This document shows, one piece after another, positions 6,498 to 39,538 of a DNA stretch of 55,149 nucleotides. Made by a program: the position numbers and the translations under genes. The number at the start of each line of letters is the position of its first letter. Within the stretch, counting starts at the first letter, position 1. Under the pieces are notes generated by a model. It was not told the DNA's origin, made no database searches, and was given only the letters and a program-made list of their open reading frames with translations. This DNA comes from a virus (Duplodnaviria; Heunggongvirae; Uroviricota; Caudoviricetes), in the IMG/VR virus record IMGVR_UViG_2531839531_000008, one strand, 5' to 3'.

Positions 6498-7136
6498 TTA
6501 AATATCTTGTTGAATTTTAAAGCATACGCCCAATATGCAAGATAGATCATCCAGCATAATTGAAGGGTAGCGAGGATTCGTGGGGACTAAAAGAATATCC
6601 GGCCCTTCTATCTCCAGTTTACGAATGACAGGTGTTGTGGTCCCTTTGGGTAAGGCAAGGACAATATTTCCTGGTTGTACGGTTCGATCGGGATCAACAA
6701 AAACTGTTGAACCATTTGGGATGGAAACTCCCCCACCAGATGTTGACATACTGTCACTCTCTAGAACAACTGCAAAGGTATTGACCGGGATTTCTCCGAC
6801 AAGCTGCACACAAGAGGTTATTGAGGAATTTTTCATATAATCACTCCAGCTTGCTGCCTGCTGAAGTGATAGTAGCGGAACCGTTTTTATCGGCGGTAAA
6901 GATAGATCAAGCGAATCACCTGTATTTAACTCTCCTCCATTAAGAAGCCAATTTTCGTTTACTTTCAATATTTTTGCCAGTGAACTTATGTAACGCGAGG
7001 ACGGCGCTCCTCCACCGTTCATCCATTGACTTACGGAGCCTTTTGATGCGCCAGTGCCATTGACAAGGTCTTTGCCTTTCAGGTTTAGCGCATGCATACG
7101 TTGGGTTATGCGTTCAGATATAGTTTGCTTGCTCAT
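6498..7136 (-). CDS. cI: CI-type prophage repressor (XRE HTH + S24 LexA-like peptidase domain)
   Basis: 212 aa; N-terminal HTH (SQWMNGG), C-terminal S24 fold; divergent from cro-like gene. Confidence 0.85.
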   Translation of the reverse strand: MSKQTISERITQRMHALNLKGKDLVNGTGASKGSVSQWMNGGGAPSSRYISSLAKILKVNENWLLNGGELNTGDSLDLSLPPIKTVPLLSLQQAASWSDYMKNSSITSCVQLVGEIPVNTFAVVLESDSMSTSGGGVSIPNGSTVFVDPDRTVQPGNIVLALPKGTTTPVIRKLEIEGPDILLVPTNPRYPSIMLDDLSCILGVCFKIQQDI

Positions 7137-7227
7137 GTTTTGATTTTAAAACACAGATGGTTTTGTTTCTTGACTTTCTTTGGTTTTGATTATTAAACTT
7201 TTGACGTTCAGTTTTATGGAGCGACTC
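7137..7227. promoter_or_regulatory. immunity operator/promoter region between cI and cro
   Basis: two near-identical sites GTTTTGATT-TTAAAAC at about 7138-7153 and 7184-7198, a related half-site in between, TTGACT/TTGACG -35-like hexamers. Confidence 0.5.
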
Positions 7228-7458
7228 ATGAAAAAATCAGAAGTATTAGGCTATTTTGGCGGAGTTGTTAAAACAGCCGCAGCTCTAGGAACGTCAAAAA
7301 CCACAGTCAGCATGTGGGGGGAAGAGGTTCCGTGGAAATGGGCGTTGCTAATTCAGGCAGTCACTGCCGGGGCGCTCAAATATGAGTTACACATACCGAC
7401 GGTTGTCATTCCCGGTTCTGATCATAATCCGCCTTCTAACCAAGGGGGGGATTCATGA
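7228..7458 (+). CDS. cro: Cro-like HTH regulator (YdaS-position)
   Basis: 77 aa; GGAG RBS 6 nt upstream; divergent from cI; HTH-like segment TAAALGTSKTTVSMW. Confidence 0.6.
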   Translation: MKKSEVLGYFGGVVKTAAALGTSKTTVSMWGEEVPWKWALLIQAVTAGALKYELHIPTVVIPGSDHNPPSNQGGDS

Positions 7459-7880
7459 AAATCAAGCATGAACACATCCGCATGGCGATGAATGCCTGGG
7501 CGCATCCGGACGGCGAAAAAGTACCGGCTGCGAAAATTACCAAAGCGTATTTCGAGCTGGGAATGACGTTCCCGGAACTGTATGACGACAGCCATCCGGA
7601 AGCCCTGGCTCGCAATACCCAGAAAATTTTCCGCTGGGTAGAGAAAGACACCCCTGATGCAGTTGAAAAAATTCAGGCGTTGTTACCAGCGATCGAAAAG
7701 GCAATGCCACCTTTGCTGGTGGCCAGAATGCGCAGCCACAGTTCAGCTTATTTTCGGGAGCTGGTGGAGACGCGGGAGCGACTGGTGAGAGACGCTGATG
7801 ATTTTGTCGCAGTGGCAATCGCCGGTTTCAATCAGATGAACCGTGGTGGCCCGGCAGGAAATGCTGTGGCAGTACATTGA
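7455..7880 (+). CDS. YdaT-like protein (CII-analog position)
   Basis: 141 aa beginning MKIKHEHI as Rac YdaT is recalled to; ATGA coupling to cro-like gene. Confidence 0.55.
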   Translation: MKIKHEHIRMAMNAWAHPDGEKVPAAKITKAYFELGMTFPELYDDSHPEALARNTQKIFRWVEKDTPDAVEKIQALLPAIEKAMPPLLVARMRSHSSAYFRELVETRERLVRDADDFVAVAIAGFNQMNRGGPAGNAVAVH

Positions 7881-7951: not shown

Positions 7952-9022
7952 ATGGCTAACGCCTGGCTCAGATTATGGCATGACATGCCAAATGACCCTA
8001 AGTGGCGAACAATTGCCAGGGTGTCAGGGCAGCCAATTGCAACAGTGATGGCAGTGTATATCCACCTCCTGGTGAGCGCGTCACGAAATGTCACGCGAGG
8101 TCACATTGATGTCACGACAGAAGATTTGGCAAGTGCGCTCGACGTGACAGAAGAGGTAATTGATTCAATTTTGCAGACGATGCAGGGGCGGGTACTTGAT
8201 GGTGATTTAATCACTGGATGGGAAAAACGCCAGGTGCTGAAAGAGGACAACGGCAATATTTCGCAAACCGCAAAATCTCCGGCAGAGCGCAAGAGGGCGC
8301 AGCGAGAGAGGGAAAGAAAGCGGGAACAAAATGGCGATTGTCACGGCGAGTCACGAAATGTCACGCACATGTCACGACGAGTCACGACAGATAAAGATAC
8401 AGATAAAGATACAGATCAAGAAGATCAAAACACTATGGTCCATGGCGTAAAAAACGCCACGAACCAGGCAGGGGATGTTCAGACCGTCACTCCTGGCCAG
8501 CCCGCAGGCACGACACCGGAAGCCGATTCAGCGTATGCGCTGAAAGCCGATTCGGGCGCTGTGCAGCAGGTGATGACCGCAAGGCAGGAGCAATCACACC
8601 AACTTCAGCAGCCTGAAGCCGATTCCGCCATTCAGCGGGAAGCCGATCGGGTAGTCCCGGAAAACACCGGGCAGCCTGTGGGACGAGTGGATTATCCTGA
8701 TGTGTTCGAACAGATCTGGCGGGAATACCCGTTGCGTGCTGGGGCAAACCCGAAGAAATCCGCTTTCAGTGCCTGGAAGGCCAGATTACGCGAGGGGGTG
8801 TCACCAGAGGCCATGCTGGATGGCGTGAGGCGTTACGCAAGATACCTTGCGGCTACCGGGAAAACGGGAACGGAATTTGTTCAGCGAGCGACGACGTTTT
8901 TTGGACCGGACCGGAATTTTGAAAACCCCTGGCTGCTCCCGGTAAGCGGCACGAACAACCAGCGTTGTGTGAATCATATTTCTGAACCGGATACCGAAAT
9001 TCCACCGGGCTTCAGGGGGTAA
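7952..9022 (+). CDS. replication initiation protein (O-like) with internal origin iterons
   Basis: about 356 aa; two GTCACG iteron clusters and an AT-rich tract inside the coding sequence; position after cII analog. Confidence 0.65.
   Translation: MANAWLRLWHDMPNDPKWRTIARVSGQPIATVMAVYIHLLVSASRNVTRGHIDVTTEDLASALDVTEEVIDSILQTMQGRVLDGDLITGWEKRQVLKEDNGNISQTAKSPAERKRAQRERERKREQNGDCHGESRNVTHMSRRVTTDKDTDKDTDQEDQNTMVHGVKNATNQAGDVQTVTPGQPAGTTPEADSAYALKADSGAVQQVMTARQEQSHQLQQPEADSAIQREADRVVPENTGQPVGRVDYPDVFEQIWREYPLRAGANPKKSAFSAWKARLREGVSPEAMLDGVRRYARYLAATGKTGTEFVQRATTFFGPDRNFENPWLLPVSGTNNQRCVNHISEPDTEIPPGFRG
8080..8116. repeat. iteron cluster 1 inside O-like gene
   Basis: GTCACG/GTCACA copies at 8080, 8090, 8100, 8111 with 10-11 bp spacing. 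Confidence 0.6.
8340..8433. repeat. iteron cluster 2 plus AT-rich tract: probable prophage ori
   Basis: five GTCACG copies at 8340, 8350, 8360, 8371, 8381, then ATAAAGATACAG x2 AT-rich tract. Confidence 0.65.
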
Positions 9023-9062
9023 GTGTTGATTTCTGGTCATGAGGTAATTTTCAGGAGGACTT

Positions 9063-9485
9063 GTGGCAAAAGTTTTTACACAAGAAGAGCGAGAAAAAAT
9101 TAAAGGGCAGGTTGTTGAACTCGTACGCCAGAGTGGGCGTGAGACGTTACGGCAACTGCAAGTCAAGACAGGTGCGACAAGATATCTGATGAGCGTTCTC
9201 GCAAGAGAGCTGGTTGCCAGCGGCGATGTATACAACTCTGGTTACGGGTTATTCCCGTCTGAACAGGCGCGTAAGGACTGGCAAAATGCCCGTAAAAAGC
9301 TCTCAAGGGCAAAGCTGAAGAAACCATCTGCGGTTGATCCGGACCTTATCTGGTCATTACCTGACGGAGAAATACGTCGCTACGACAGGCGTCAGAACAT
9401 AATCTGTCGCGAGTGCCGGAAGAGTGAGGTTATGCAGCGAGTGCTGGCGTTTTATCAGGGTAATTTTCAGGAGGTGATGGCGTGA
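9063..9485 (+). CDS. hypothetical nin-region protein
   Basis: 140 aa, GTG start with AGGAGG RBS. Confidence 0.5.
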   Translation: MAKVFTQEEREKIKGQVVELVRQSGRETLRQLQVKTGATRYLMSVLARELVASGDVYNSGYGLFPSEQARKDWQNARKKLSRAKLKKPSAVDPDLIWSLPDGEIRRYDRRQNIICRECRKSEVMQRVLAFYQGNFQEVMA

Positions 9486-38794: not shown

Positions 38795-39538
38795 ATGACC
38801 ACACCAAATCCACTGGCAAAAACGAAAGGTGCGGGAACGACGTTCTGGATGTACACCGGCAAGGGCGATGCGTTTGCGAACCCTTTATCGGACACTGACT
38901 GGCTGCGTCTTGCGATGGTGAAGGATCTGCAACCTGGCGAAATGACCGCTGATGCAGAAGATGACACTTATCTCGATGATGAAGATGCAGACTGGAAAAC
39001 GACAACCCAGGGGCAGAAATCCGTCGGTGATACTTCGGCGACGCTGGCCTGGCGTCCGGGTGACAGCGGGCAGAAAAAACTGGTTCAGTTGTTCGACTCC
39101 GGTGAAGTCTGCGCGTTTCGTATCAAATATCCCAACGGCACTGTTGATGTTTTCCGTGGCTGGCTGAGCTCACTGGGTAAAACCATTGCCTCAAAAGACG
39201 TGATGACCCGCACAGTGAAAATCAGCGGTGTGGGGCGTCCGTATCTGGCAGAGGAAGGCACTGAAACAGTGAGCGTTACCGGGCTGACGGTGGCACCGGC
39301 ATCTGCCAGTGTAAAAGTGGGAGCAACCACCACGCTGACCTTTACAGTAAAACCTGACGGAGCCAGTGACAAAGCGATCAGTGTGCATTCGACAGATCCA
39401 CAGACTGCCACGGTGACCCTGAACGGGCTTGTGGCCACGGTGAAAGGCGTGAAGCAGGGCAGTGTCAGCATTGTGGGCATGACTTCTGACGGCGATTTTG
39501 TGGCAGTGGCTGCGGTGGCTGTCAGCGCCGCAGGTTAA
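38795..39538 (+). CDS. major tail protein V with C-terminal Ig-like domain
   Basis: 247 aa; AAGGAGG RBS; C-terminal Big_2-like repeat. Confidence 0.8.
   Translation: MTTPNPLAKTKGAGTTFWMYTGKGDAFANPLSDTDWLRLAMVKDLQPGEMTADAEDDTYLDDEDADWKTTTQGQKSVGDTSATLAWRPGDSGQKKLVQLFDSGEVCAFRIKYPNGTVDVFRGWLSSLGKTIASKDVMTRTVKISGVGRPYLAEEGTETVSVTGLTVAPASASVKVGATTTLTFTVKPDGASDKAISVHSTDPQTATVTLNGLVATVKGVKQGSVSIVGMTSDGDFVAVAAVAVSAAG

Follow-up and report, generated by a model that had tools for sequence, protein, structure and literature searches.

A putative replication origin with two iteron arrays inside the initiator gene of a lambdoid prophage

The 55,149-nt sequence analysed here (IMG/VR virus record IMGVR_UViG_2531839531_000008, hereafter the window) carries a replication initiator gene that contains two arrays of a 6-bp direct repeat (iteron), an A-rich tract and an inverted repeat, an arrangement suggestive of a replication origin (Table 1). 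The gene is identified as an initiator by its position and its PHROG family, and it occupies the replication slot of a lambdoid prophage. Upstream are a divergent gene for a CI-like repressor (6498–7136, minus strand) and genes for a Cro-like (7180–7458) and a CII/YdaT-like protein (7455–7880), and downstream are genes for DUF977, DUF4406 and DUF4752 proteins, followed by the antiterminator Q gene. The sequence of the initiator gene is identical to a segment of the Escherichia coli NCCP 13717 chromosome, and 2535 of 5426 complete E. coli genomes carry the gene or one half of it. From its N-terminus, the encoded protein consists of a winged-helix domain (N-domain), a basic helix, a disordered linker and a helical C-terminal module (C-module). 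The entire protein matched no Pfam family at E ≤ 0.01, and its relatives are named 'phage replisome organizer' in RefSeq.

Table 1. Features of the initiator gene and of the candidate origin that it contains (window coordinates; aa, amino acids; ORF, open reading frame; L001 and L002, related loci described in the text).
Feature	Position	Strand	Description
Replication initiator gene	7952–9022	+	356 aa ORF; phrog_3729 'replication initiation protein', E = 2.8e-256
N-terminal winged-helix domain (aa 1–98), presumed iteron-binding	7952–8245	+	
Iteron array 1	8080–8116	+	GTCACG at 8080, 8090, 8111; GTCACA at 8100–8105; spacing 10/10/11 bp
Inverted iteron copy	8143–8148	-	CGTGAC on plus strand; codes for the D-V-T turn of the helix-turn-helix (aa 64–66)
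Iteron array 2	8340–8386	+	GTCACG at 8340, 8350, 8360, 8371, 8381; spacing 10/10/11/10 bp
A-rich, purine-skewed tract, presumed DNA-unwinding element	8387–8429	+	(ACAGATAAAGAT)x2.9 then CAAGAAGATCAAA
Mosaic junction between N-module and C-module	8410–8426		E. coli match breakpoints; comparison with L002 and L001
Inverted repeat	8436–8466		13-nt arms, 5-nt loop; directly 3' of the A-rich tract
C-terminal module, presumed helicase/loader-recruiting interface	8552–9022	+	Helical domain and tail ...EPDTEIPPGFRG

Neighbouring sites within an array are spaced by one helical turn. Array 1 encodes aa 43–55 (SASRNVTRGHIDVT), corresponding to the end of one helix (aa 29–45) and the loop that follows it, and array 2 encodes aa 130–146, which are part of the disordered interdomain linker. 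The starts of the arrays are separated by 260 bp, array 1 lying about 230 bp upstream of array 2. A sequence-only reading of the window had reported four copies of GTCACG in the first cluster and five, at 10–11 bp spacing, in the second. The positions in the second cluster were confirmed; the first array is real, but only three of its copies are exact, the fourth being GTCACA. The site consensus is (T)GTCAC(G), with GTCAC followed by G at about 85% of sites, and the flanks are degenerate. Over the window as a whole the hexamer is not enriched (24 copies versus 23.75 expected), and nine of the 24 copies fall within 8080–8386. Eight same-strand copies occur in 312 bp, where 0.04 would be expected (Poisson 1.5e-16), and the biggest cluster seen in 200 Markov-1 simulations held three copies. 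No other 60-bp stretch of the window contains three or more GTCAC.

Both arrays bear the signature of DNA-level selection overriding codon choice. An alternative, that the repeats are a by-product of the protein sequence (repeated V-T, S-R and C-H motifs) and functionless as DNA, is scarcely credible. The encoded residues are invariant in protein alignments (S44, V47, T48, R49, G50, H51, V144, T145 and others), as this explanation would have it. However, with a period of 10–11 nt, successive copies start in different codon positions (3, 1, 2, 1 in array 1 and 2, 3, 1, 3, 1 in array 2), so that all three frames are used and the one hexamer specifies S-R, V-T or x-H-x. Synonymous recoding of codons 1–160 using local codon usage gave 1.55 ± 1.13 copies of GTCAC (maximum 7 in 5000 trials), whereas nine are observed. 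Third-position conservation was measured as the majority-base frequency at conserved, degenerate amino acids. In 19 non-redundant orthologues with the GTCACG hexamer, drawn from Gamma- and Betaproteobacteria and aligned by codon (median nucleotide identity 66%), it was 0.98 in array 1 and 0.92 in array 2 but 0.55 outside them (p = 8.5e-6 and 0.0025, respectively), third positions being frozen solely within the hexamers. A class of relatives that carry CGAACG instead gave the same picture, with 0.97 and 0.90 versus 0.60. Codon phase, synonymous-site conservation and recoding together rule out the peptide-repeat explanation, against which there also stand the joint change of hexamer in both arrays and a second array that lies on the opposite strand in Shigella phage 75/02 (see below).

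The iterons are not missing from orthologues, an absence that would have spoken for a coding-driven repeat. A scan that took one genome per species yielded 47 loci, and GTCAC was found at matching gene offsets in 25 loci of other genera (129/139/149/160 on the plus strand, 193 on the minus strand, and three to five copies at about 387–430), with amino-acid identities of about 52–99% and a local GC content of 41–67%. These offsets are kept in Shigella, E. albertii, Aquitalea, Rahnella, Serratia, Bordetella, Pseudomonas, Acidovorax, Chromobacterium, Castellaniella and others, those of array 1 being retained in most GTCACG-class loci of other genera. The inverted copy (GTGAC at offset 193) is present in about 20 of 26 GTCACG-class loci, with a per-base conservation of 0.68–0.95. 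Array 2 has three to five copies in orthologues, and the A-rich tract always adjoins the final one. In L002 (2630–2690) and L007, the pair made up of an E. albertii locus and one of E. coli EC6868, array 1 has a 21-bp insertion equal to two iterons or seven codons (TCHGVSL), which raises it from four to six copies; iteron number changes in frame-preserving pairs.

More distant relatives carry a substitute hexamer, always at the equivalent gene positions of both arrays. CGAACG(C) occupies both arrays in nine loci and one metagenomic phage, GTAACG is found at gene offsets 139–224 and 368–455 in four loci (L026, L028, L037 and L041), and GCAACG occurs in both arrays of Ralstonia phage Hennie, the initiator of which is 38% identical. 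Two close relatives, L028 (GTAACG) and L030 (GTCACG), show the C/A difference at about 10 equivalent sites spread over both arrays and the inverted copies, the equivalent of the inverted copy in L028 reading CGTTAC. GTAACG is never read in codon phase 3, where it would introduce a TAA stop; it occurs in phases 1 and 2 only, and L026 and L028 retain GTCACG at their phase-3 positions. In this class the mutual constraint between coding frame and DNA sites is directly visible. As judged from these comparisons, the hexamer changes in concert in both arrays across N-domain subfamilies. The sequence-only reading had remarked that a second, upstream cluster departs from the canonical single array, and this is borne out: array 1 is a real second array because it is conserved and its hexamer changes together with that of array 2, and lambda has no annotated second array.

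A further repeat was found in an E. coli O157:H7 prophage (L001) and in Shigella phage 75/02 (L003), a Shiga-toxin (Stx) phage of Eru4 type (PMC8951638), whose initiators have an unrelated N-domain and the same C-half as the window initiator. Here AGGGGCTT is present in two arrays at offsets of about 186–207 and 441–464 (2166–2200 and 2422–2455 in L001; 2079–2105 and 2334–2355 in L003), followed by a GAACAG-repeat tract. In 75/02 the second AGGGGCTT array is inverted, which excludes a coding explanation for these arrays.

After array 2 the sequence-only reading had placed an AT-rich tract with a tandem repeat, and Tandem Repeats Finder did detect one at 8387–8421 (period 12, 2.9 copies, 95% matches, unit ACAGATAAAGAT). 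The GC content over 8380–8439 is 0.325 and the AT skew about 0.5. With a predicted stability of -44.7 versus -58.8 ± 3.8 kcal/mol, the 40-mer at 8390–8429 is the least stable in the gene and belongs to the least stable 1% of the window. The region presents phased direct repeats beside an easily melted AT-rich element, a trait of iteron-type theta origins. In nearly every member of the family, the final iteron is followed by a motif like AGATAAAGATAAAGA. Family-wide, the 45 nt beyond this iteron have a GAT:GAC ratio of 86:12 versus 274:306 in the remainder of the gene (Fisher p = 9e-15) and an AAA:AAG ratio of 84:18 versus 202:229 (Fisher p = 3e-11), and this bias towards A/T-ending codons persists in genes of 60–68% GC. 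The distal part of the tract contains two GATC (Dam) sites (8414–8417 and 8423–8426), and GATC is also found at the tract end in the Rac prophage and several enterobacterial relatives; control of the tract by Dam methylation or SeqA is possible.

The inverted repeat that follows the tract has a DNA fold of -8.7 kcal/mol (z = -2.85) and is kept in the relatives that share the window-type C-module (L001, z = -3.06; L003, z = -5.13); the corresponding value for the lambda palindrome is z = -3.5. Folds after the tract were not significant in loci with other C-modules (L002, z = -1.5; Rac, z = -0.05), and the palindrome is therefore claimed just for the window-type module. The repeat was also called as a terminator-like hairpin on the minus strand. 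A terminator role for the region was rejected, the sole strong 'terminator' being this ori-type inverted repeat on the non-coding strand, as was a promoter role, since a promoter scan was at chance level (three promoter-like sites versus 2.1 expected). The distal part of the tract is also where the gene is mosaic. E. coli relatives match either nucleotides 1–464 or 482–1075 of the query, one or the other, and the N-module so delimited comprises the N-domain, the iterons and most of the tract.

In the AF2 model of the initiator, residues 1–98 form a confident winged helix (helix 29–45, loop 46–55, helices 56–63 and 67–77, hairpin 78–88), followed by a basic helix at 110–127, disorder from about 136 to 224, with a predicted local distance difference test (pLDDT) score below 50 for residues 136–165, and a helical C-domain at 223–316. 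The DnaD N-terminal domain (NTD) was the best structural match of the N-domain, the RepA NTD was among the matches, and the winged helix has the DnaD-NTD fold. The Pfam profile Phage_rep_org_N was aligned over positions 1–119 of 121 but scored 15.9 bits (E = 0.013), below the gathering threshold of 23.3. The protein fold is that of the DnaD-NTD/RepA_N/replisome-organizer group. Searches with the N-terminal 160 residues returned 815 relatives in the protein collection, ranging from Enterobacteriaceae to Pseudomonas, Bordetella and Chromobacterium. Just 25 phage records contain the N-domain, none of them from a classical model phage. In the Pseudomonas phages phita81A, 5399, 5371 and Marin (H50, H52–H54), the N-domain-homologous region is annotated as two hypothetical proteins, and gene callers may be splitting these initiators near the repeat/linker region.

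The C-module matches phrog_1701 ('DnaD-like helicase loader') and shares 90% identity with the C-half of the initiator from the O157 prophage, the N-domain of which is unrelated. Within the family, N-domains are fused to DnaT-like, YdaU-like and other C-domains, and the next gene encodes a DnaC-like, lambda-P-like or DnaB protein. The hexamer type shifts with the N-domain subfamily, which is presumed to bind it, and C-modules are swapped. The C-terminal tail ...RCVNHISEPDTEIPPGFRG (aa 335–356, 8954–9019) is common to Rac YdaU, the O157 prophage initiator and several distant N-domain relatives, and it also matches DnaT, a primosomal protein of E. coli, at its extreme C-terminus (NCBIfam E = 0.0014; PDB 6aep, 2ru8 and 9zbt). 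The tail may be a short motif that recruits a host replication protein.

In a second alternative, the arrays are bound for regulation or recombination by some other protein, such as Cro, the CII/YdaT-like protein, DUF977 or a host factor. We regard this as very unlikely. The hexamer type follows the N-domain subfamily from Enterobacteriaceae to Ralstonia, irrespective of neighbouring genes and C-modules; a host factor would leave four different hexamers unexplained; and iterons, an easily melted AT-rich tract and a palindrome make up the classical anatomy of an origin. What can be said for another binding protein is that the putative recognition helix of the N-domain is not basic, and that the A-rich tract is common to initiators with unrelated N-domains and coincides with the recombination junction.

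The closest parallel in layout is phage lambda. The lambda origin and the candidate origin of the window both fall among the initiator codons for the interdomain linker, and in both an A-rich, strand-asymmetric tract comes after the repeats and an inverted repeat (palindrome) after the tract. The C-half is exchangeable in both, hybrid genes being joined in the AT-rich tract, and the N-half, which confers origin specificity in lambda, would do so in the window as well; the lambda record has misc_recomb sites annotated at the place in ori equivalent to the window junction. The gene itself follows cro and cII and precedes a ren-like gene in both cases. By analogy, the anatomy is of the lambda ori type, with iterons, an A-rich tract and an inverted repeat set in the linker codons of a two-domain modular initiator, and the organisation that the sequence-only reading had compared with lambda O, an origin within its initiator gene, appears to be correctly recognised. 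Its term 'O-like' is justified by this analogy of layout but not by homology: no match to Phage_rep_O was found (E ≤ 0.01 for the whole protein, E ≤ 5 for domains), so membership of the lambda O family was rejected, and BLASTP against lambda O aligned only the low-complexity linker (E = 0.04). Lambda has four 18-bp iterons about 20–24 bp apart in a single annotated array (39034–39118), unlike the window, which has 6-bp cores spaced at 10–11 bp and grouped into two arrays with about 230 bp between them, the first array lying within codons of the DNA-binding domain. Lambda also has a P-type loader gene directly downstream, which the window lacks.

The ydaU gene of Rac occupies the same slot as the window gene (YdaS/YdaT-like genes, then the initiator) and shares the tail IPPGFRG and a nearly identical A-rich tract, ATAAAGATACAGATAAAGAT, with GATC sites. 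Unlike the window gene, it has an unrelated DUF1376 N-domain and a TGTTCAAAC-like repeat in one main cluster, and is followed by the DnaC-like ydaV. In E. coli K-12 Rac (L004), positions 2010–2140 within ydaU hold TGTTCAAAC-like repeats, some of them inverted, then a ATAAAGATACAGATAAAGATC tract and then CCCCCGGGGG. Rac has been reported to have an active origin, oriJ (PMC3945230), and the ydaU repeats and tract are a plausible candidate for it.

Taken together, we consider it probable (at about 0.75) that 8080–8466 is the replication origin of the prophage, located inside the gene of the initiator that uses it. Array 2 and the tract would form the origin core, and array 1 a conserved auxiliary block of initiator sites. 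In the proposed mechanism, the DnaD-NTD-like winged helix would bind the hexamers as a phased, same-face array, and an oligomer on array 2 would destabilise the neighbouring (ACAGATAAAGAT)n tract. The exchangeable C-module would then recruit the replicative helicase, here by way of host DnaB/DnaC since no loader gene follows the initiator, and in relatives through a DnaC-like or lambda-P-like partner. Array 1 would supply a second initiator block, either by looping or wrapping of about 300 bp with array 2, in a manner comparable to that of the paired DnaA sub-complexes at oriC, or by forming a second sub-complex for helicase loading; alternatively, it might tune initiation.

Several points weigh against this interpretation. 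Origin activity, protein binding and melting are all deduced from sequence. Foldseek returned no significant match in the PDB, the helix at the usual recognition position (aa 67–77, EEVIDSILQTM) is acidic and hydrophobic, and DnaD does not bind DNA through its NTD (PMC7145576). The arrays are separated by 211–247 bp in most loci and by 319 bp in one, and the helical phase varies; strict helical phasing between the arrays is not supported (gaps of 211–319 bp), and a rigid looping model is weakened. Loci L032, L034 and L042 have no evident array 1, which is therefore not indispensable.

The last two points also favour a different division of labour, in which array 2 and the A-rich tract are the whole origin and array 1 is a negative or autoregulatory element that titrates or handcuffs initiator or acts as a roadblock to transcription of its gene. 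In the P1 and F plasmids, control iterons of the incA type titrate or handcuff the initiator in this way. Array 1 has no adjoining A-rich tract and is missing in some family members, its copy number steps by 21 bp among close relatives (four versus six), as might be expected of a tuning element, and the array-to-array phase is not conserved. On the other hand, limiting copy number would be of little gain to a lytic burst, the synonymous conservation of array 1 is at least that of array 2, and array 1 also occurs in settings that look virulent or are unrelated, Ralstonia phage Hennie being an example. The negative role is a possibility that we hold to be doubtful, and an activating role for array 1 seems somewhat more likely than a purely negative one.

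A more speculative idea, which we think improbable, concerns how the hexamer is recognised. The N-domain segments encoded by array 1 (aa 43–55, a loop and strand joining helices 1 and 2) and by the inverted copy (aa 64–66) might themselves help to read the hexamer, so that reader and site would share the same nucleotides. These segments differ by hexamer class (SRNVTRGHxDVT, SNATERGRTQNV and SKNETRGNATVT). If this were true, a change in the iterons would automatically alter their reader, giving a single mutational path to new origin specificities (replication incompatibility groups), and such shared coding would be limited by the reading frame, as where GTAACG never occurs in codon phase 3.

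Replicons with two blocks of initiator sites are known elsewhere. Separated arrays of one iteron serve origin and control functions in the P1 and F plasmids (incC and incA), and two-block arrangements are also found in P4 (ori and crr) and in oriC, with its left and right DnaA sub-complexes. The window resembles all of these in having two blocks of one site with just one beside the unwinding element, and differs from them in that both blocks, about 230 bp apart, lie inside the coding sequence of the initiator. In RepA_N proteins the NTD binds iterons and the C-terminal domain is host-specific; their iterons are longer, semi-palindromic repeats around a poly-A tract (PMC7145576), whereas the window family has 6-bp cores in two arrays and is proteobacterial. 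SPP1 G38P, a phage replisome organizer of the Phage_rep_org_N type, binds oriL (PMC5615212), and gene 38 has repeats in its middle part, as does the window initiator gene. Homology between the two proteins was considered and rejected, as hhalign found nothing (probability 0.2%).

The loader-less layout of the window (no helicase-loader gene in 9022–10689) is also found in the phage records Tritos, Evi and vB_EcoS-640R1. In L001 and L003, which have the same C-half, genes for a DnaC-like ATPase and a DUF1627 protein are inserted ahead of the DUF977 gene, and L002 carries a lambda-P-like gene ('replication protein P'). Beyond Q, and convergent with it, the window has a low-GC cassette of two genes (10695–12104, minus strand) whose products are a DUF6731 protein of 304 aa and a membrane protein of 159 aa that is weakly RexB-like (PADLOC E = 0.0014). 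The two genes may form an exclusion module similar to RexAB.

That an origin can lie within its initiator gene is textbook knowledge. What is new here is the family, the 6-bp iterons spaced at one helical turn, the conserved second array in the codons of the DNA-binding domain, and the four hexamer classes that change together in both arrays. In the literature searched, no description of iterons or of an origin was found for this initiator family, and the Eru papers, which classify the replication regions of Stx phages, make no mention of origins or iterons. Related modules are present in Shiga-toxin phages, for example Shigella phage 75/02, and the origin and its specificity determinants would provide a handle on prophage induction and replication, and hence on toxin gene dosage. 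They are also relevant to replication incompatibility between phages and to the construction of phage-derived replicons. Four hexamer classes on one scaffold, each with two arrays, offer a system for studying the recognition code of DnaD-NTD-like domains, and the same series is suited to asking what role a second array plays in a phage origin.

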